Origin: a virus
Length of the DNA: 64,000 nucleotides
Virus record (IMG/VR): IMGVR_UViG_3300047300_000501
Span: 10,203-74,202 of that record
Strand: one strand, 5' to 3'
Position numbers and translations under genes: made by a program. Shown piece by piece: positions 1 to 59,155 of this stretch; position 1 is the stretch's first letter, and each line of letters starts with the position of its first letter. The notes below the pieces were generated by a model that searched no databases, was not told where the DNA came from, and saw nothing but the letters and a program-made list of their open reading frames with translations.

Positions 1-600
1 ACACCGTATTCTTTCTCAACTACAACTTATGGAGTTAAGTGTATTTCTGGAAATACATTTATTAGACTTGCTCCAGGCAAAGGTATCGAACAAACAGATA
101 TTCTTACAGGTAAAAAATATCTTATGAATGATAATAATGAAATTATTGCAAAACAGGCAAAAGATATTCAGATTGGTGATGAAGTCATGACTGTTCAATA
201 TGCTGAAGTTGATCAGTCTTCCCCAGACTATGCAGTATTTGAGTGGAACTCTGACTCTCTTACATTTGTTTCAAATTCAACAACAACTATTACTGATATT
301 GAAGAATCCGCTAAGTTCCAAACAGTTTACATTAATGGCGACCAGTCAGCACAGTTTACTTTAGAACATCCAATTCTTACAAATAAAATCATTAATGGTG
401 TTCCTTCTTGGAAGTTTGCAATGGTAGCAGAACTTGAAGTAGGAGATATAATTGTTAAATATAACAATGAAACTGGACTATATAACAATGTAGAAATAAC
501 ATCATTAGACATAATGTCAAACTTAGACCCAGTTTATACCTTCAGTGCTGAGCCAGGTGATATAATTGTTGCAGGCGATATTATAACTCACAATAAGTAA
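1..600 (+). CDS. C-terminal part of Hint (intein-like/BIL) domain precursor, paralog of 10858..12216; truncated by left window edge
   Basis: Frame 1 is open from base 1: TPYSFSTTTYGVK-C(40..42)ISGNTFIRL...AKQAKDIQIGD...FTLEHP...VYTFSAEPGDIIVAGDIITHNK*. Motifs closely match 10858..12216. The 124 start in the ORF track is internal. Confidence 0.9.
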   Translation, partial: TPYSFSTTTYGVKCISGNTFIRLAPGKGIEQTDILTGKKYLMNDNNEIIAKQAKDIQIGDEVMTVQYAEVDQSSPDYAVFEWNSDSLTFVSNSTTTITDIEESAKFQTVYINGDQSAQFTLEHPILTNKIINGVPSWKFAMVAELEVGDIIVKYNNETGLYNNVEITSLDIMSNLDPVYTFSAEPGDIIVAGDIITHNK

Positions 601-9004: not shown

Positions 9005-10834
9005 ATGGCAACTAGAATGCAACAACGCAGAGGTACTGCACAGCAATGGACTGACGCAGACCCAATTTTGGCAGCAGGAGAAATTGGATTTGAAACAGAT
9101 ACCAACCAGTTTAAGATTGGTGATGGCGTAAATGCATGGTCAGATCTCTCCTATTTTAAGAACTTAGAAGATCTTGGCGGATCTTTAGATGACTATGTTC
9201 CAGTTAGCACAAAGGGTCAAGCAAACGGTGTAGCCGAACTTGATTCAACAGGAAACGTTCCAATGTCTCAACTTGGAAACATTATTGATGGTGCACCAGC
9301 AGCACTTGACACACTCAACGAAATCTCAACACTTCTTGGTGATGGGTCAAGCCTTGGAGCATCAGTAGTTTCATCTTTAAACGCACTTGATACAGCGCTT
9401 GCAAACCACGCAGACAATACAAGCACTGCTCATGGAATGGTGATTGCAGACCTCGCAACACATACTTATGTAGCCGATGCAATAACAACACATGCGTCAG
9501 ATACTACAGGTGTACACGGTATTGCAGATATGTCTGCACTAGCAACATCAGAGTATGTTGGTGATACAGTTGGAGCACACAACCTAGATACAACACAGGT
9601 GCACGGAATTGAAGATACAGCAGAACTTGCTACAAAAACATATGCAAATAATGCAGTGTCAACACACCAAGCAGATACAACAAATGTTCACGGTATTGCA
9701 GATACATCTGCTCTTGCACTATCTGTAGATGTAACATCTGAAATTGCAGCACACTCTGCAGATACAACAGATGTTCATGGAATTACAGATACAGCAAACC
9801 TTGTCTATACATCTGACTCACGCCTTTCAGATGAAAGAACCCCTTCTGCGGGTTCTGTAACAGCAGCAAAGATTGCAGCAGATGCAGTAGAAACAGCAAA
9901 GATTGCTGACGGTGCAGTAACAAATGCAAAACTTGCAGATGATGCAGTAGATACTTTAGAAATCAAAGATTTAGCAGTTACAAATGCTAAGTTAGCAGGA
10001 TCAATTGCACAGTCTAAGATTACTAATCTAGAGACAGACATTGCTTCAAAGCAAGACAAGGTAACTGGAGTTTCAGATACTGAGATTGGGTACCTTGATG
10101 GAGTTACATCAGCAATCCAGACACAGATCAATGGAAAGGCTTCTCTTTCTGGAGCAACCTTTACAGGTGATGTTACAGTTGAAACCAACCTTACAGTTGA
10201 TGGAAACCTTACAGTAACAGGAACAACTACAACAGTTTCTGCACAAGATCTTGTTGTGTCTGACCCACTGATCTATATCGGTGAAGGAAATACAGCAAAC
10301 CTTGTTGACCTAGGTCTTGTATCATCTTTCAACGATGGAACCTACCAGCATGCAGGTATTGCTCGTGATGCTTCTGCTGGAAAGTGGAAGATCTTTAAGG
10401 GTGTAACTGATGAACCAACAACTACAATTAACTTTACACAGGGATCACTTGATGACCTTGCAGTTGGTGCTCTTGAGGCAACAACAGTTACTCCATCTTC
10501 TGGAATAGTTTTCTCAGATGGCACACAAACAAAGGTTGGAGTTCCATCTATAACAACTTTTGCAACAGCAATTTCTTCTAGCGCAACACTTGCAACAGGA
10601 GAGCAGGATAAGTTTGTTCCACTAACTGGAGCAGTTACAATCACTCTTCCTGCAACAGGATACTCTACTGGGCAGTCAATTGACTTCTATCAGGCTTCAG
10701 GTACTGGTGCACAGTTTGCTTCAACCAACAGCGTTGTAGGCACACCAGGACTAAAGTTCAGAACTACAAACTCAGTAGTAACAGCAATGAAGACTCCAAC
10801 TGGATGGTTAGTCTTCGGAGATTTGTCAGCATAA
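9005..10834 (+). CDS. tail fibre protein with Mtd_N/hyaluronidase-type N-terminal domain
   Basis: MQQRRGTAQQWT...ILAAGEIGFETDT..FKIGDG; GAPAALDTLNEI; His repeats; AVT.AK[IL]A repeats; C-terminal WLVFGDL. Confidence 0.8.
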   Translation: MATRMQQRRGTAQQWTDADPILAAGEIGFETDTNQFKIGDGVNAWSDLSYFKNLEDLGGSLDDYVPVSTKGQANGVAELDSTGNVPMSQLGNIIDGAPAALDTLNEISTLLGDGSSLGASVVSSLNALDTALANHADNTSTAHGMVIADLATHTYVADAITTHASDTTGVHGIADMSALATSEYVGDTVGAHNLDTTQVHGIEDTAELATKTYANNAVSTHQADTTNVHGIADTSALALSVDVTSEIAAHSADTTDVHGITDTANLVYTSDSRLSDERTPSAGSVTAAKIAADAVETAKIADGAVTNAKLADDAVDTLEIKDLAVTNAKLAGSIAQSKITNLETDIASKQDKVTGVSDTEIGYLDGVTSAIQTQINGKASLSGATFTGDVTVETNLTVDGNLTVTGTTTTVSAQDLVVSDPLIYIGEGNTANLVDLGLVSSFNDGTYQHAGIARDASAGKWKIFKGVTDEPTTTINFTQGSLDDLAVGALEATTVTPSSGIVFSDGTQTKVGVPSITTFATAISSSATLATGEQDKFVPLTGAVTITLPATGYSTGQSIDFYQASGTGAQFASTNSVVGTPGLKFRTTNSVVTAMKTPTGWLVFGDLSA

Positions 10835-10857: not shown

Positions 10858-12216
10858 ATGTCAAAACAAGCAGGTAGAATGAGCCAGGGAGCAAATGACT
10901 TCTTGGCACCGTACGCTCCAACAATTGGAACAGCAACCAACGTTCCAGCAGGAAGAGCATACAACAATGGACGGGTAGATGTAACATTTACTCCTGACCC
11001 AATCAATGCAGCAACATCATTTACTGTGACATCTTCTCCTGGAGGTTATACTGCAACTGGTGCTTCTTCTCCAATTTCAGTTACAGGTTTACAATCATCA
11101 GTGGCTTATACATTTACTGTTACAGCAACTAATGACGCAGGAACCTCAGCACCGTCTGCAGCATCAAATAGCGTTACAGCGACAACAGTCCCTGCAACAC
11201 CAACTGCACCAAGTGCTTCTTCTCCGTCAGCAGGTGTAGACTCAGTTTCATGGTCTGCACCAGCAGATGGTGGATCAGCGATTACAAATTACCACTGGGA
11301 ATCAAATGACTCAAAGTCAGGAGATACAGCATCTACATCAGTAAGCGTTGGACAGGAGCAGGGTACAGCACAGGCTTATCGTGTTTATGCAACAAATGCT
11401 AATGGTAACTCAGAATACTCTTCATACTCTGGAACAGTAACTACAACATTTTCATTTGTTCCATTTGGCGTGTTTGGTTTCTCACCATTTGGTTTCTCAC
11501 CATTTGGTTTTTCACCATTCTCATTCTCTCCATTTGGGTTCTCTCCGTTTGGGTTTTCTCCGTTCTCATTCTCACCATTTGGTTTCTCACCGTTCTCATT
11601 CTCACCATTTGGATTTTCTCCTTATGGATTCTCTACAACAACATACGGTGTAAAGTGTATTGATGCTAATACATTTATTAGAGTAAAGACTGGACTTGGT
11701 GTCGAGTCTACTGATCCAGAAACTGGCAAGGTAACTCTTAAAGATGCATCAGGACAAGTAGTTGCTAAGCAAGCAAAAGATATTCAGGTTGGAGATACAG
11801 TTCTTTCAGCAGACTATGCCGAAATTGACCCATCATCTCCAGATTACGAAGTCTTTAACTGGTCTTCTAACTCACTATCTTTTATTAATCACTCAGAAAC
11901 CACAATTACTGACATTGAAGAAACAAATAAGATTCAAACTATTTACTTCAATGGTGATCAATCAGCACAGTTTACATTAGAGCACCCAGTTCTAATTAAG
12001 AGAAATACTGCTGGAGCAATTAGTTATGGTTTTGCTATGGTTGCAGAAGTTCAGGTTGGAGATGCTATTCTAAAGTATAGCCCAACATCAAACTCATATA
12101 TTGAGACAGATATTACATCTATCGACATATCTTCTGGACAAAAGGTAGTCTATACTTTTAGCGCAGAACCAGCAGATCTTATTATTGCTGGTGACATCGT
12201 TACTCACAATAAGTAG
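10858..12216 (+). CDS. FN3-domain protein with (FSPF[G/S])x10 array and C-terminal Hint domain
   Basis: Two FN3-like units (VTGLQSSVAYTFTVTATN.AG.S; VSWSAPADGGSAITNY...YRVYATNANGNS), the repeat array, then K|C(11656)IDANTFI...TLEHP...DIVTHNK*. Confidence 0.9.
   Translation: MSKQAGRMSQGANDFLAPYAPTIGTATNVPAGRAYNNGRVDVTFTPDPINAATSFTVTSSPGGYTATGASSPISVTGLQSSVAYTFTVTATNDAGTSAPSAASNSVTATTVPATPTAPSASSPSAGVDSVSWSAPADGGSAITNYHWESNDSKSGDTASTSVSVGQEQGTAQAYRVYATNANGNSEYSSYSGTVTTTFSFVPFGVFGFSPFGFSPFGFSPFSFSPFGFSPFGFSPFSFSPFGFSPFSFSPFGFSPYGFSTTTYGVKCIDANTFIRVKTGLGVESTDPETGKVTLKDASGQVVAKQAKDIQVGDTVLSADYAEIDPSSPDYEVFNWSSNSLSFINHSETTITDIEETNKIQTIYFNGDQSAQFTLEHPVLIKRNTAGAISYGFAMVAEVQVGDAILKYSPTSNSYIETDITSIDISSGQKVVYTFSAEPADLIIAGDIVTHNK
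11479..11628 (+). repeat. 10 x 15-bp coding tandem repeat, FSP[F/Y][G/S]
   Basis: FSPFG FSPFG FSPFS FSPFG FSPFG FSPFS FSPFG FSPFS FSPFG FSPYG, with synonymous codon variation; degenerate FVPFG at 11455. Confidence 0.95.
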
Positions 12217-12221
12217 CGTGT

Positions 12222-12893
12222 ATGCGTGGGGACAGACATCCTAAGCCATCTGAATTTTGGCTAAGCACTTATGACATGTCTTTTTCAGACATTGTTAATA
12301 AAAGTAACTGCAATCGGTTATTTGTAGAGTATCAGCATGTATTAAAAAACGATGCTGTAAAAAACTCTATACTAAAGCCAGTAAATGACTACGCTTATAA
12401 TTTATATCCTGCGCCAGAGTTTCTTAAGTATGAGGATGGATATGTATATTTAAGGCAGAGAACGCATGCAGAGATATGGGTCAAACTAGATTATACTCTA
12501 GGTGTTTATTTTTTAGACAGACCACATATTAGGCAGTTTTATTGTTCAGATAAAATACTTAAAGCAGATAATACATTTTTATCTACATACAGATTTTATA
12601 ACCCATGGTTTTTTGACCTTAACAGAGAGTATGAAATAGTTGCTGTACATGATGAATTTACCCCCTTTGTAATAGAAGAGTTAGTTGTGCCAATTTTCAA
12701 CACTAATGTCACTATCCTTGAGCCAAATTTTACTCATTTTTTGTTTAAAAAGAGCGGGGACCATATGCTGGATCCAACTCATGGTAAAATTAGTATAGGA
12801 ACTCCTATGTATGACATGAAGATAAAAGTAAATGACAAGGAACTTAAGTCATTAAAAGATTTTTATTCAACATATAAGTTTCACAGATTCTAA
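12222..12893 (+). CDS. hypothetical protein, divergent relative of the two following genes
   Basis: RFYNPWFF and GKISIGTPMYDMKI echo INPMWSV and GIIEKGTPIAQVIP of 12908. Confidence 0.5.
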   Translation: MRGDRHPKPSEFWLSTYDMSFSDIVNKSNCNRLFVEYQHVLKNDAVKNSILKPVNDYAYNLYPAPEFLKYEDGYVYLRQRTHAEIWVKLDYTLGVYFLDRPHIRQFYCSDKILKADNTFLSTYRFYNPWFFDLNREYEIVAVHDEFTPFVIEELVVPIFNTNVTILEPNFTHFLFKKSGDHMLDPTHGKISIGTPMYDMKIKVNDKELKSLKDFYSTYKFHRF

Positions 12894-12907
12894 AGAAAAG
12901 GAAGAGT

Positions 12908-13627
12908 ATGCCAAACATAGAGTTTCACCCTTGGAGCGACGACGCTGAAGGTTTGATTGATAAGCCTACGCCAACACATAGAAATGTTCCAGAGTGGTAC
13001 AGAAAGCAACCAGCATACGTAAACAAAGAAGATTTTCTTAAAAAGGGTATTTCTGGTTCAACAATAAAGAAGTGTATGCCAGTCTTTGATGCTATGACAG
13101 CGGGGTATACTTTGTATTGTCCACTAGATATTTATGTAGATGCAACAGATCCAAATAAATTAGAGTATAACATCCCTATAGCCGTTGCTGGCTTTAAAAA
13201 AGAATTGTTTACCACACACTCACCAGAGCAAACTACTCACTATCCAATGCCGTCATATGTTCATAAGGATGTTCTTAGAATTAATCCAATGTGGTCAGTT
13301 AAAACATCTCCTGGCTATAGTTCATTGTTTATTAAGCCAATGCATCAAGAGCATCAGCCTTTTGAATTAGTACCAGGAATTATTGATACAGATACCTATG
13401 TTAGTGAAGGGTTCTTATCTTTTAAGATTGAGAGTAGTTTTAAAGGCATAATTGAAAAAGGAACACCTATTGCTCAAGTCATTCCATTCAAAAGAGAGAA
13501 TTGGCAAAGTCAACATATAGAATATAAAGATTCTAAAGAGGGTCAGAAAAAGCAAAGAATGCTCGTGAGAAGTAAGTTTTTTAATTATTATAAGAAAAAC
13601 TTTTGGCACAAAAAGGAATGGCATTGA
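12908..13627 (+). CDS. DUF6065-related / dUTPase-like-fold protein
   Basis: PEWYR, TIKKCMPVFDAMTAGY, W.VKTSPGYSSLF..P, PGIIDTD, KGTPIAQVIPFKRE.W. Confidence 0.55.
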   Translation: MPNIEFHPWSDDAEGLIDKPTPTHRNVPEWYRKQPAYVNKEDFLKKGISGSTIKKCMPVFDAMTAGYTLYCPLDIYVDATDPNKLEYNIPIAVAGFKKELFTTHSPEQTTHYPMPSYVHKDVLRINPMWSVKTSPGYSSLFIKPMHQEHQPFELVPGIIDTDTYVSEGFLSFKIESSFKGIIEKGTPIAQVIPFKRENWQSQHIEYKDSKEGQKKQRMLVRSKFFNYYKKNFWHKKEWH

Positions 13628-14355
13628 GTAAAAAGATAAAGTTTCATCCAACATCTTTAGAGATGTATGATAATTTTGACATACTTCATCCTGAACCAGC
13701 AATCAAACACATACCTGAATGGTATAAGGATTTAGCCCAACATTATGATACAAATAATGTAGAGTTTTTAAACCCAGTGAATGATCGTGGAACAGATGGT
13801 GCCAATGTTTCTACTAAAATGTGCTATCCATTTAGAGATGCTATGACTGCTGGGTACGTTTATCGATTAACCCAAGACATAGAGGTTACATTGAGTCCAG
13901 ATGGCAAACCAGAACTATCTTGGGAGTATGATTCCTTAATGATGCTTGACAAGAGGTATATCCTAGATATGGTTCCACCAGAGGGCTGCCACCCTGTTCA
14001 TTTTGGTCTAAGAATGCATTGGTATTATGAAACGCCACCAGGATACTCTGTTTTAATTACCCACCCAATGAATAGGTATGATCTGCCTTTTACAATTCCT
14101 TCAGGAATCATTGAGTCAGACCTGATGGGTATTCCAGTATTTCTATCATTTTTTCTAAAGAAGAATTTTATTGGTACAATCCCAAAGGGAACCCCACTAT
14201 TTCAAATAATACCTTTTAAAAGAGAAGACTGGGAGATGGAAGTAAGCCTAGACCCAGAAGAGATATTACAAAAAGAATACGACCTTGAAAATAGAAGAAC
14301 TAGATTATTTGCATACTATAAAAAGTTTGCATGGAGAAAGAAGAGTTACCTATAG
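13624..14355 (+). CDS. DUF6065-related protein, tandem paralog of 12908
   Basis: PEWYK, KMCYPFRDAMTAGY, ETPPGYSVLITHP, KGTPLFQIIPFKREDW; likely TTG start overlapping the upstream TGA. Confidence 0.55.
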   Translation: MSKKIKFHPTSLEMYDNFDILHPEPAIKHIPEWYKDLAQHYDTNNVEFLNPVNDRGTDGANVSTKMCYPFRDAMTAGYVYRLTQDIEVTLSPDGKPELSWEYDSLMMLDKRYILDMVPPEGCHPVHFGLRMHWYYETPPGYSVLITHPMNRYDLPFTIPSGIIESDLMGIPVFLSFFLKKNFIGTIPKGTPLFQIIPFKREDWEMEVSLDPEEILQKEYDLENRRTRLFAYYKKFAWRKKSYL

Positions 14356-14387
14356 TGTATAATAATAATATAGAAAAAGGAGCAAGC

Positions 14388-15011
14388 ATGAGAGAGCACA
14401 AATTCTTTGAAAGAATGCTAAATGCAGACACAGACCGTTTAGCGCATTACCTTGGTGAGCAATATCAAAAGATTGAAACACTAACTTTGCCAGGTATTCA
14501 GAAGTTAGGTCCAAATGAGGCATGGACAGAATCAGGAAGTTTATCTACAGTAAAGTGGAGAGAGTATAACGTCTTTCAATTTTTTCATCCAGATATTCAT
14601 AAACTATACAAGACAATTGGTGAAGTTGTTAGAGAGGCTTGTGAGTACTACCAGATTGATTTTGATTCACAAGAGTATATGGTTCAGGGATGGTTTAACA
14701 TTAACCATAAGAAGACTGGTAAGTTAGACTGGCACGATCATGGTGGGCCTTTTGCTCCACATTTTCATGGATTTTATTGCGTAAAGGCTGAGCCATCAAT
14801 TACTTACTATAGACTTTTTGGTGATCCAAACCGAGAGGTTGCAAATCACAATATTAATAATAGAATGATTGTTTCAGAAATGGGACACCCACATGCACAG
14901 GGTGACTGGGACTGGGATGGTCCAAGAGTGACTATTGCATATGACATTGTTCCTTTAAGATCTCTTGTCAATGTCGGCGCTTCAGAGCAGCATTGGATTC
15001 CATTATGCTAA
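14388..15011 (+). CDS. putative 2OG-Fe(II) oxygenase (HxH type, TIGR02466-like)
   Basis: GWFNIN, WHDH, FHGFYCV.AEPS.TYY, GHPH, PRVTIAYDI; SD aaggag before 14388. Confidence 0.65.
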   Translation: MREHKFFERMLNADTDRLAHYLGEQYQKIETLTLPGIQKLGPNEAWTESGSLSTVKWREYNVFQFFHPDIHKLYKTIGEVVREACEYYQIDFDSQEYMVQGWFNINHKKTGKLDWHDHGGPFAPHFHGFYCVKAEPSITYYRLFGDPNREVANHNINNRMIVSEMGHPHAQGDWDWDGPRVTIAYDIVPLRSLVNVGASEQHWIPLC

Positions 15012-15655
15012 CAGAAAAGAAACCACATAAGTTCTTTGAGCGATTTTTAGATAACGATGTAGAAGAGTTGTACGAGTATCTTGCAGATAAACAACAAGAT
15101 TTGCTTGAAGGAAAGGTTGGACAAATTCCACCAGAAGAACTAGCAAAGTACGATGAACATAATGGCGCAACAACACAATTAGGAATGCACTATAATGTTT
15201 TTGACTTTGACCATGTCGGAATCCGTAACCTTAAGGCTGCACTTGCAGATGCAGTAAAAGAAGCAAATGAGTACTACGGCGAAAACTTTGAAGAGAATGA
15301 TTATATGATTCATGGTTGGTATAACATGGATCCAAAAACACAAGGTAAAAAGGGTGTCAATCCTTTACAGAATGATGTGTTTTTTCATGACCATATGGGT
15401 GGAGAGGGTAGCCCTGTATTTCATGGGTACTACTGTGTAAATGCGGAACCATCAATCACTTACTATAAAATTGATGGTGTAACATTATTTGAAAATCATA
15501 ACAAGAATAACAGGGCTATTGTTTCAGAAACTGGTCATCCGCATGGAAGAGATGATTGGTTTGAAAATAAGCCAAGAATCACAATAGCCTACGACATAAT
15601 TCCTGCAAGAATGCTTGGAAATGTTGAGGGGCAAAATTGGCACAAACTGAAGTAA
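15005..15655 (+). CDS. putative 2OG-Fe(II) oxygenase, tandem paralog of 14388
   Basis: HKFFER.L, GWYNM, FHDH, FHGYYCVNAEPSITYY, GHPHG, PRITIAYDI. Confidence 0.65.
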   Translation: MLTEKKPHKFFERFLDNDVEELYEYLADKQQDLLEGKVGQIPPEELAKYDEHNGATTQLGMHYNVFDFDHVGIRNLKAALADAVKEANEYYGENFEENDYMIHGWYNMDPKTQGKKGVNPLQNDVFFHDHMGGEGSPVFHGYYCVNAEPSITYYKIDGVTLFENHNKNNRAIVSETGHPHGRDDWFENKPRITIAYDIIPARMLGNVEGQNWHKLK

Positions 15656-16512
15656 AACACGGTAAGATTCTTGTACATATCTACTCTTATAAAGAGAGAA
15701 ATCTTTTAGATTTTGTAGAAAGTATCATCAATAAAAGTTCTGGTATTAACGCTATTGACATATACGTAACTGATCAGAACAATCTTACAAGACTAAGACA
15801 ATTTGTTCCTTATAGCAATGTTAGGTATGACGTTGTTTGGTGGGATGAGTTTTTAAGTCCTAATATTTATATTCAAAAAACAATAAGCGAAAATGCCTAT
15901 AAGCAGTATGATTATGTATTACTATTAAAGCAACATGTTGAATTCAAGAATGGTTGGGATACAGATTTAGTTGGTCTGCTACCTGAAGATGGTGTTATTT
16001 CTGGCCAGGGCAAATTTAGACTATCTATAGATAAAAACTTTTATATCAAAAAGGATAAAAGAATATCTAGAGAACTTGTTAGTACTGGATTTATAGATAG
16101 AAACTTTATCTTTGCTAAATTTAAAGATATTAGAAATATTATATTTCCATATGAATTAAAGTACTATGGTGATGAAGAGTATCTCTCTATACAGTTTTTA
16201 AATAACGGTCTTGATATTTTTGCACTCCCAACAGATTACTACACTGTAATGTCTAAGCCAATTCATGAAAGAGGATACGTTCCATTTTCTCTAAACCATA
16301 ACTACAACGAAGTGGTCTCTTTACTTAAAGAGAACAGGACATCTAGGCTTCCATACAAAGATCCATCTAAATTCTTACAATTGATTGGTCTTGACCTAAC
16401 AAACTTACATAGGTTGCCGTTTGACTTCAATGATATTGAGTACGATAGATTTTCTAGTTTGGATAAAACTGGTGGCAAGAGATATATTGAAAGATTAAAC
16501 TCAGTATCATAA
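15637..16512 (+). CDS. GT-A glycosyltransferase, GT60 (hydroxyproline GlcNAc-transferase, Gnt1)-like
   Basis: ILVHIYSYKE (cf. IFVSIASYRD), KQHVEF..GWD (cf. DSH.RF...WD), YYGDEEYLS......G.DIFALP (cf. F.GEE.......G.D...P). Confidence 0.6.
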   Translation: MAQTEVKHGKILVHIYSYKERNLLDFVESIINKSSGINAIDIYVTDQNNLTRLRQFVPYSNVRYDVVWWDEFLSPNIYIQKTISENAYKQYDYVLLLKQHVEFKNGWDTDLVGLLPEDGVISGQGKFRLSIDKNFYIKKDKRISRELVSTGFIDRNFIFAKFKDIRNIIFPYELKYYGDEEYLSIQFLNNGLDIFALPTDYYTVMSKPIHERGYVPFSLNHNYNEVVSLLKENRTSRLPYKDPSKFLQLIGLDLTNLHRLPFDFNDIEYDRFSSLDKTGGKRYIERLNSVS

Positions 16513-18639: not shown

Positions 18640-19170
18640 ATGGAGGACTACGTGTCACAGATACATCACTTTAAGGCATTCATGAAGCCAGAAGATGCTG
18701 AAAAAATACATCAGCATGCTGTAAAGTTTAGTGATAGTTTTAATATGCATGGAAACAATGAAAAAGAATTTAAGGTCTACACCTATCATGAGATTGAAAA
18801 AGATGATAGACAAATTTTAGATCTTATGCAGTATTATGCCCTTAAGGTTTATAATCATGTAAAAGAAACATATGGTGGTCCATTCTTAGAATTCAATCCA
18901 CACAAAACACACTTTGCACGTTTTGAAGAGGGACACGGAATGCATAGTCACTACGATGCTTCTAGGCCAAATGATATTGCTACTGTTTTATATTTAAATA
19001 GTAACTACGATGGAGGAGAGATTTATTTTCCAGAGTATAACATAGAAATAAAGCCAGAGCCAGGAGATCTTCTATGTTTTCCAGATGAACCACACTTTGT
19101 TCATGGGGTAAAGCCAATTCTTAAGGGTACTAGATATACAACACCACGCTGGTTTCCACGCATAGTATGA
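18640..19170 (+). CDS. 2OG-Fe(II) oxygenase, prolyl 4-hydroxylase-like
   Basis: HSHYD, TVLYLNSNYDGGEIYFP, FVHGVKPI..GTRYT..RW. Confidence 0.9.
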   Translation: MEDYVSQIHHFKAFMKPEDAEKIHQHAVKFSDSFNMHGNNEKEFKVYTYHEIEKDDRQILDLMQYYALKVYNHVKETYGGPFLEFNPHKTHFARFEEGHGMHSHYDASRPNDIATVLYLNSNYDGGEIYFPEYNIEIKPEPGDLLCFPDEPHFVHGVKPILKGTRYTTPRWFPRIV

Positions 19171-58354: not shown

Positions 58355-59155
58355 ATGACAAAAAGTTTATTACAGCAGGTTATGCTTAAGGGAAGTCCTA
58401 AGAAAGAGGCTCACCCAATTGATCCAAGTGGATTGATTACAGCAATTGAAAAAGGCTATACAGCACCAAGAGTAACAAAGTTTACAACCAAGAAGACTTT
58501 TGCTCCATCAACACTTGCATATTCACATGGAGAGTGTGCACGATATTGGTATATCGCATTTGATGGTGCAGACTTTGAAGACAATTCAGATGCATATGGT
58601 GTTGCAAATATGACATCAGGTACTTTGTCTCACGGAAGAATTCAAAAGGCAATGAGAGATGCTGGAATTCTAATTGAAGATGAGTTTAAAATTACTTATC
58701 CAGATCCACCAATCTTTGGATATGGAGATGTAATGCTAGACTGGCAAGGAGAACCACTCCTTGGTGAAATTAAGACCATGATGAGTGAAGCCTTTGAATA
58801 TAGAAAGGCAGCAGGAAAACCAAAGACTGGCCACCTGATTCAGTTGCTTATTTATATGAAGATTCTAAAGAAGAAGAATGCAGTATTTATTTATGAAAAT
58901 AAAAACAATCACGAACTGCTAATTCTTCCAGTAGAAGTAAATGATTATTATGTTCGGTGGGTAGACCAAGCATTTGATTGGATGAGAGAAGTTCGTAAGG
59001 CATGGGTTGATAGAACACTGCCAAAGAAAAATTATAGATCCAATTCCAAGATATGCAAAACTTGCCCTGTACAAAAGGCATGCGCTAATGCTGGCGATGG
59101 AACTATAAAAATTAGTCCTCTGGAGCCACTAGATGAAAAACTGTCAATGGTGTGA
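58355..59155 (+). CDS. Cas4-like PD-(D/E)XK exonuclease
   Basis: ECARYWY, GYGD...GEIKT, QLLIYM, C..CP....C; promoter TGATATACT 58322..58330. Confidence 0.85.
   Translation: MTKSLLQQVMLKGSPKKEAHPIDPSGLITAIEKGYTAPRVTKFTTKKTFAPSTLAYSHGECARYWYIAFDGADFEDNSDAYGVANMTSGTLSHGRIQKAMRDAGILIEDEFKITYPDPPIFGYGDVMLDWQGEPLLGEIKTMMSEAFEYRKAAGKPKTGHLIQLLIYMKILKKKNAVFIYENKNNHELLILPVEVNDYYVRWVDQAFDWMREVRKAWVDRTLPKKNYRSNSKICKTCPVQKACANAGDGTIKISPLEPLDEKLSMV

Follow-up and report, generated by a model that had tools for sequence, protein, structure and literature searches.

The IMG/VR contig IMGVR_UViG_3300047300_000501 (74,202 bases) encodes two proteins that end in a Hint domain, both located next to fibre-like genes. 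Our analysis covered bases 10203-74202 of this contig, a stretch of 64,000 nt referred to as the window, and concentrated on the Hint domain at 11656-12216 on the plus strand (Hint-B), together with its paralogue at the beginning of the window (Hint-A). Sequence comparison and structure prediction suggest, with a probability that we put at roughly 60%, that each is a terminal autoprocessing cap resembling the A-type bacterial intein-like (BIL) domains, which would remove itself from a fibre-associated protein.

Two proteins with a terminal Hint domain

The open reading frame (ORF) of Hint-B (10858-12216, plus strand) encodes 452 amino acids and consists of an ANDF segment, two FN3-like domains (Pfam fn3 match, E 1.4e-8), an FSPFG repeat, a linker and the terminal Hint domain. 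The Hint domain proper, delimited by predicted fold, structure alignment and profile match, extends over 185 residues from Cys267 to Asn451 (11656-12210), and the segment 11656-12216 runs exactly from the Cys codon to the stop of the ORF, giving 186 codons including a terminal Lys. Its first residue, encoded by TGT at 11656-11658, is the only cysteine of the whole protein and the predicted nucleophile of an N-S acyl shift. Block B is represented by T373-L-E-H376 (TxxH; 11974-11985) inside the sequence QFTLEHP, and the domain closes with His450-Asn451, a single +1 residue, Lys452 (together 12205-12213), and a TAG stop codon (12214-12216). On its N-terminal side lies the conserved linker GFSTTTYGVK (11626-11655), which ends at the -1 residue Lys266 and shares the motif FSTTTYGVK with the paralogue. 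The linker is preceded by a 15-nt tandem DNA repeat of about 10.8 copies (11473-11634), encoding about ten F[G/S]FSP pentapeptides that are predicted to be disordered and whose number differs between close homologues, from approximately 5 to 14 units. In a model of the full-length protein, residues 22-195 form two confident FN3-like beta domains (pLDDT, the predicted per-residue confidence, about 90), repeat and linker (residues 201-265; 11458-11655) reach a pLDDT of 30-37, and the Hint domain (267-452) is predicted at a pLDDT above 90; docking of the linker into the Hint domain was not predicted.

Hint-A enters the window with its 3' part (1-600, plus strand), in which the Cys1 codon is found at 40-42, the Hint domain at 40-594, the Lys codon at 595-597 and a TAA stop at 598-600, so that the protein ends in ...ITHNK. 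The complete ORF of 494 amino acids starts 884 bases upstream of the window (locus L002, 580-2064) and encodes, in this order, PASTA, VTP repeats alternating with Cys-rich modules, the sequence YSFSTTTYGVK and the Hint domain. Comparison of the two paralogues revealed 59% protein and 64% DNA identity between the Hint domains and no relation between the N-terminal parts. Both Hint domains comprise 186 residues including the terminal Lys, are all-beta and contain no endonuclease, the last point in agreement with a preliminary description of the window, which had also reported the N-terminal Cys, the FTLEHP motif and the terminal THN-Lys-stop of both copies. The coordinates of these features were confirmed, and the ends are retained in all 44 close homologues (57-98% identity), each of which carries YG[VIT][KR]-Cys, FT[LV]EHP and THNK followed by a stop, so that a chance arrangement is ruled out.

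Predicted fold and closest structural relatives

An AlphaFold2 model of the Hint domain, calculated from 17 family members, showed the horseshoe-like all-beta Hint fold at high confidence (pLDDT 92; predicted template modelling score, pTM, 0.87). Foldseek comparison against the PDB returned 43 matches below E 1e-3, every one of them a Hint domain, with Tetrahymena BIL2, Clostridium thermocellum (Cth) BIL, Hedgehog and mini-inteins heading the list. Alignment with VIA-align gave Z-scores of 17.0 for the Mtu RecA mini-intein, 16.9 for Hedgehog (139 residues), 16.5 for Tetrahymena BIL2 and 15.8 for Cth BIL, at root mean square deviations of 2.0-2.4 Å over 129-139 residues for the mini-inteins (DnaB included), Hedgehog and BIL structures. 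Fold prediction, named in the preliminary description as a way in which the Hint assignment could fail, thus supports that assignment. Residues 1 to 185/186 of the model pair with the intein, Hedgehog and BIL structures from the first residue of these to the last, and owing to this end-to-end alignment Cys1 and Asn185 (numbered from the first Cys) correspond to the first and last positions of an intein. The additional length relative to mini-inteins resides in about 20 residues that are inserted behind the first strand and specific to this clade, and in a loop of lower confidence (residues 51-70).

At the sequence level, a family profile built from 21 diverse members (A3) found Cth BIL (2lwy) as its best match among PDB sequences (E 5e-10), followed by archaeal mini-inteins; the alignment with 2lwy runs from block B, where the family motif kfsleqp and the window sequence FTLEHP face TTFDHP, to the terminal HN. 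A search of the PDB sequences with a single sequence gave nothing meaningful, and the Hint part had no match in PHROGs. Hint-A matched Pfam Intein_splicing at E 0.0025, up to the last position of that model at Asn, with 18.1 bits compared to a cut-off of 35.8, while Hint-B matched no Hint family of Pfam; among 88 relatives, 28 matched Intein_splicing at E < 1e-3. On sequence evidence alone the case for a Hint fold is weak, and it is the predicted structure that decides it.

Conservation and distribution of the family

Exhaustive searching of 1.84 billion cluster representatives with phmmer yielded 158 matches at E <= 1e-3 and 63 at E <= 1e-10, nearly all of which extend to the last residues of the respective protein. 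When 84 full-length representatives were aligned on the first Cys, this residue was present in 83, as was the Ser/Thr of block B, and strong conservation was also evident for Thr6 (73), Gly46 (78), Asn99 (82), Asp174 (62), His184 (72) and Asn185 (74). The histidine of block B is generally held to be the most conserved residue of Hint domains; at this position (window 11983-11985) the family carries His in 35, Gln in 35 and Glu in 13 of the 84 representatives, and both window copies carry His.

The C-terminus was assessed in 142 representatives in which this end is visible. His-Asn is kept in 121 of them (85%), and 114 of these 121 (94%) place Lys or Arg at +1 or +2: 49 end after a single Lys, 55 have a tail of 2-8 residues (e.g. 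HNGKTFF, HNLKFY, HNSKI) and 10 have a longer one, leaving seven members that lack the basic residue. Cys, Ser or Thr at +1 was found in six of the 121 (5%), and C-exteins of more than 100 residues, with a non-nucleophilic +1 residue, in two of the 142 relatives. Every full-length member inspected carries an aromatic/proline-rich low-complexity tract before Cys1, for which FGFSPF, FFAPPG, FFPPFFPP, FTPYAFTP, WFPPWFPY, poly-Pro, PTAPVAA and YNFYNYYN are examples. The N-terminal partners vary, with fn3 in 32 and PASTA in 19 of 88 relatives and an occasional Laminin_G_3, BACON or Flg_new domain, and neither the -1 residue nor the linker is conserved across the wide family. As the mean pairwise identity of the Hint part (71%) is close to that of the FN3 part (79%), the domain does not behave as a decaying selfish element. 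These comparisons indicate purifying selection on the domain as a whole and, across this extensive group of phage proteins, on the catalytic set Cys1, TxxH and His-Asn.

The family is almost purely viral. ESM Atlas neighbours, by features and by structure, fall into clusters of 52-372 members that are nearly all labelled 100% Viruses (Uroviricota) and are either unnamed or automatically named after PT-HINT or Intein_splicing. BFVD agrees with this: its best matches come from uncultured Caudovirales phages and are annotated as 'Fibronectin type III', 'Hint domain containing protein' and 'PASTA_pknB domain containing protein', and three Phage NCTB proteins come next. In one genome per prokaryotic species, patterns covering the close relatives found no relative. 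Among 50,697 phage records, the window Hint domain remained unmatched by megablast and tblastn, and searches with distant family members found only the metagenome-assembled Phage NCTB. A search of viral contigs with P0090 returned nothing.

The C-terminal end

The codon following HNK was inspected across 24 distinct loci and found to be TAA in 13 and TAG in 11. A second in-frame stop often follows immediately, no in-frame sequence is conserved downstream, and Hint-A and Hint-B are followed by different genes. Read-through or a frameshift into the next gene was rejected on account of the tandem stops, the unconserved 3' frame and the differing neighbours, and, together with a lost extein, is excluded by stops, downstream sequence and downstream genes as far as can be judged from sequence.

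Fibre-gene context and alternative caps

Hint-B is directly preceded by a fibre-like gene with an Mtd_N domain (9005-10834, plus strand), whose product ends in ...WLVFGDLSA and is the probable partner of the Hint protein, and Hint-A by an adaptor gene just 5' of the window (contig positions 8688-9311), whose product ends in ...WLLIGDLTA; the C-terminal domains of these two proteins are weakly related (E 0.004). The arrangement recurs in related contigs: a fibre-like gene precedes each Hint gene in at least 20 of them, and in at least eight the distance between the two paralogues is about 10 kb, as in this contig. A relative of 916 residues, P0140, contains the adaptor domain at residues 129-226 (BLASTP E 3e-21) and continues past the point at which the adaptor protein stops, with PT-rich modules, an FFPP tract and a Hint domain. 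P0140 is a fused version of the gene pair, a Rosetta-stone link which argues that the fibre and Hint proteins act together, the latter perhaps continuing the former. A direct comparison of P0140 with the Mtd_N fibre was not significant, the link being made only via the adaptor protein.

A comparable setting was found in Phage NCTB, a 258-kb assembly from surface water, in which three proteins of the tail-fibre cluster (LT598654.1, 96182-108637) end in related Hint domains and carry tails of 3-7 residues after His-Asn (AVMVAKK, KVD and APVDQKH). In one of them the Hint domain comes after a collagen-like Gly-X-Y stretch and a GGGG linker. The depositors labelled these proteins 'putative phage tail protein, contains intein domain' and 'large intein domain protein'.

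With the relative P0068, 40 viral loci (L024-L063) were retrieved. The scaffold of ANDF segment, two FN3 domains and aromatic/Pro repeat is common to all 40, and its end varies: a Hint cap ending in HNK was present in 17 loci and one ending in HNKKGF in one more, two loci carry a Hint domain in which Asp replaces Asn and a 37-residue tail follows, 12 loci end in a Cys-rich peptide of 18-25 residues of four sequence types (e.g. GGGCSANYCWNCPCYPCAC), and the remaining loci have short Cys-poor ends with at most one Cys. Gene order is identical in all of them, namely p674, p151, the Mtd_N fibre, the scaffold protein and an array of four to nine 2OG-Fe(II)-oxygenase-like and DUF6065-like paralogues. 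In the window, the genes of this array are located at 12222-16512 and 18640-19170, accompanied by a GlcNAc-transferase-like gene. The array occurs with Hint and Cys-rich caps alike and is therefore associated with the repeat protein, not with a Hint domain as such. By these sequence comparisons, the common scaffold can carry any of several caps, of which the Hint domain is one.

Proposed processing and alternative explanations

On the basis of these results, we propose that each protein is a tail-fibre-associated appendage in which adhesin-type domains (FN3 or PASTA) at the N-terminus are followed by a disordered aromatic/Pro repeat and a self-processing Hint domain. Cys267, aided by Thr373 and His376 of block B, would attack the carbonyl of Lys266 and convert the peptide bond into a thioester by an N-S acyl shift. 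The thioester would then be resolved in the absence of a Cys, Ser or Thr at +1, most simply by hydrolysis and possibly by an amine, releasing a 20-kDa Hint cap and leaving a 27-kDa FN3-repeat protein that ends in ...TTTYGVK. The conserved His-Asn-Lys end suggests that the C-terminal junction lies in the active site and participates there, by Asn cyclisation or by positioning of a lysine or the carboxylate. The analysis establishes the fold, the conserved residues, the location at the protein end, the setting among phage fibre genes and the size of the family, whereas every chemical step is inferred.

BIL domains, which lack a +1 nucleophile, have been reported to 'produce predominantly cleaved products', while the Hint domain of Hedgehog employs the N-S shift only (PMC7664689, PMC7765530). 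Resolution by water or an amine, as expected from the missing +1 nucleophile, would match both reports. The preliminary description had regarded the domains as domesticated autoprocessing modules, and this is still the best reading because of the Hint fold, the conserved catalytic set and the non-homing character, with the chemistry being proposed from sequence and model. Of the outcomes it had listed for the activated C-terminus, hydrolysis and ligation are retained in the readings discussed here; nothing speaks in favour of cyclisation, the N-terminus being separated from the junction by 266 residues that include two FN3 domains and the tract predicted to be disordered. A purely Hedgehog-type use falls short, as the N-S shift alone leaves the terminal His-Asn (85%) and the basic +1/+2 residue (94% of those with His-Asn) unexplained.

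Several observations weigh against a self-removing cap. Neither window copy passes Pfam's own threshold for any Hint family, and with Gln or Glu at the block B position in 48 of 84 representatives the classical catalytic set is not universal. Motifs without a catalytic assignment, AKQAKDI and PDYEVFxW together with the near-invariant Asn99 and with Asp174, are conserved as well, which may indicate an additional function. The kept His-Asn and basic residue are not accounted for by N-terminal cleavage alone and point to an added part played by chemistry or geometry at the C-terminal junction, as in A-type BIL domains; their joint retention keeps variants with lysine transfer and trans-ligation alive. 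Finally, the same scaffold in the same gene position can end in a short Cys-rich peptide that cannot cleave itself, and as this end swaps with the Hint domain, the cap could be a retained functional tip. The interchange may be read in two ways, either as exchange of a retained tip or as both caps cross-linking or registering chains.

A tentative idea is that the Hint domain is more than a self-removing cap, namely a built-in, enzyme-free ligase that passes its thioester to an amine and thereby forms covalent links at the fibre tip, which we consider improbable yet worth entertaining. The amine may belong to the conserved +1/+2 lysine, to an adjacent chain of the fibre, to the product of the upstream fibre gene or to the host cell wall, and the Cys-rich ends of sister phages may then represent a disulfide or metal version of the same cross-linking. 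In a splicing-like transfer, the terminal Lys would capture the thioester through its epsilon-amine, or through its alpha-amine after cyclisation of Asn451, to give a mature end ...GVK-Lys with the Hint domain excised, modelled on the ligation without nucleophilic side chains that has been proposed for BIL domains. Such a transfer would explain why His-Asn and a basic +1/+2 residue are conserved together (114/121) although only 1-8 residues follow, and Cth BIL is indeed the closest solved relative by sequence. We nevertheless judge it unlikely, given that a C-extein that is free or only one residue long would serve poorly as a nucleophile, that no gain from a single added lysine is obvious, and that some relatives without the Asn still terminate in His-Arg or His-Lys (...CHR, ...CHK, ...SHR).

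Trans-ligation, in which an amine or hydroxyl of a neighbouring chain, of the upstream fibre protein or of the host cell wall captures the stored thioester and the fibre becomes covalently linked, draws on the position of the cap at the end of a fibre-partner protein and on N-terminal partners that are binding modules (PASTA, FN3, Laminin_G). The alternative Cys-rich cap could likewise cross-link, and Hedgehog provides a precedent for transfer to a nucleophile other than water (PMC7664689). No acceptor candidate emerged, however, and no recognition region follows the Hint domain, whereas Hedgehog needs its sterol-recognition region; as the -1 residue and the linker are also unconserved in the wide family, this purely inferential route appears distinctly unlikely.

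Alternatively, the Hint domain could be a stable distal knob serving in binding or folding, with catalytic-looking residues that are structural. Its interchange with non-cleaving Cys-rich ends, the good conservation of the entire domain and the replacement of the block B His by Gln or Glu in half of the family are compatible with such a retained cap. Cys1, by contrast, is near-invariant at 30% identity and is the sole Cys of the Hint-B protein, and block B [ST] and His-Asn sit exactly at the catalytic positions of inteins; retention of these residues for structural reasons only would be unusual at such divergence, and we regard a non-cleaving cap as quite improbable. A remnant of a selfish intein that has lost its C-extein, or a product of read-through or frameshifting, would account for the intein-like domain with its His-Asn but can practically be dismissed in view of the often tandem TAA/TAG stops, the lack of conserved in-frame sequence downstream, the differing downstream genes, the missing endonuclease, the variable N-terminal partners without any conserved host protein and the same end being conserved in hundreds of phage proteins.

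Comparison with known Hint systems

Hint domains are known as selfish inteins, as the cholesterol-transfer module of Hedgehog proteins and as bacterial BIL and pretoxin domains, and a terminal Hint domain without extein in the fibre region of phages, conserved across hundreds of protein clusters, would add a fourth setting. Of the known types, the window domain is, by its sequence, closest to A-type BIL and also most like it in the working proposed here. It shares with Cth BIL (PDB 2lwy) the Hint fold, Cys1, block B, the terminal His-Asn followed by a residue other than Cys, Ser or Thr, variable and non-conserved surface-type carrier proteins and the absence of an endonuclease. A-type BIL domains are defined by a C-terminal His-Asn with a non-nucleophilic +1 residue (PMC7765530, PMC7664689), and both window copies show this as THN-K; the A-type sequence signature (Amitai et al. 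2003) was judged by proxy, from 2lwy being the best PDB match of the family profile. A further feature expected of BIL domains is a position inside a variable stretch of a bacterial protein that is itself not conserved, with sequence on either side; here the partners are variable, and the domain is phage-encoded and terminal. Unlike an A-type BIL, it is followed by one Lys (1-8 residues in relatives) and no downstream polypeptide, is encoded in a phage fibre module, always stands after an aromatic/Pro repeat, conserves a basic residue at +1/+2, has Asp at the His position of block F and, in about half of the family, Gln or Glu in block B.

The likeness to the Hog domain of Hedgehog proteins (PDB 1at0, 6tyy) lies in a C-terminal Hint domain on a secreted or surface-type protein whose N-terminal part is the product, and the structural match to Hedgehog equals the best ones. 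In Hog domains, by contrast, a sterol-recognition region follows the Hint module, and a terminal His-Asn is not conserved. No such region follows the window Hint domain, and with the stop one residue after His-Asn there is no recognisable module for a cholesterol-type transfer. With class 1 mini-inteins (Mtu RecA, Ssp DnaB) the domain has in common the fold, the order of blocks A, B, F and G and the positions of Cys1 and His-Asn. It differs from them in having no C-extein, +1 nucleophile, conserved host protein, homing endonuclease or insert-free allele: where class 1 inteins have Cys, Ser or Thr at +1 followed by a C-extein, Lys and then a stop codon are found here, and scaffolds without a Hint domain bear a different cap and not the rejoined protein expected at an intein insertion site. 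Lacking a conserved host protein, an endonuclease and a C-extein, and being conserved as a component of its gene, the domain is not a homing intein.

PT-HINT domains (PF07591) of polymorphic toxins resemble the phage domain as releasing proteases in long filamentous proteins. They sit immediately before a C-terminal toxin domain and free it (PMC3482391), whereas nothing lies C-terminal of the window Hint domain and no toxin domain is present. PF07591 was matched by two of 88 relatives and by larger shares in some ESM Atlas clusters, and by neither window copy. A canonical intein, a Hog domain and a pretoxin Hint domain were accordingly each rejected, as for each one defining feature was tested and found to be absent. 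An analogy in function only is offered by the Peptidase_S74-type C-terminal chaperone of phage spikes and fibres, which also removes itself after serving; it is a trimeric chaperone with Ser/Lys autoproteolysis, unrelated to Hint in fold and chemistry.

Our literature search found no paper on terminal Hint domains in phage fibre proteins, either as a family or with regard to their chemistry, and papers on phiCbK and CBB mention only ordinary inteins. Already known are automatic Hint and PT-HINT labels on some members and one GenBank record noting an 'intein domain'. If the caps are self-cleaving, the annotated proteins are precursors, the actual constituent of the virion terminates in its repeat tail, free or modified, and the modelling of abundant appendages of aquatic phages changes. 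Should the thioester be transferred and not hydrolysed, the domain would represent a natural one-shot ligation device at the point of host contact and a compact tool for protein engineering. The natural variation of block B (His, Gln, Glu) and the conserved +1/+2 lysine also bear on how Hint sites operate without canonical residues.

Genomic context of the window

The contig is estimated to be 68% complete, and the window has a G+C content of 37.6%. A sub-threshold WhiB-like match (17.5 bits, cut-off 23.6) was observed at 59024-59089 (contig positions 69226-69291) in the ORF 58355-59155; being below threshold, it is too weak for the assignment of an actinobacterial host. In the whole 74-kb contig, the family profile revealed no further Hint domain beyond the two copies at E <= 1. 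Genes of the window include those for a portal, a head protease, a structural protein, a DnaE-like polymerase, DnaB and a RecA-like protein, and the match to a terminase is weak. The statement in the preliminary description that the usual intein hosts carry no obvious insert stands for the DnaE-like, DnaB-like and RecA-like proteins, which fit their PHROG families with no insert visible, and for NrdJ, whose length of 676 amino acids equals that of NrdJ in related contigs.

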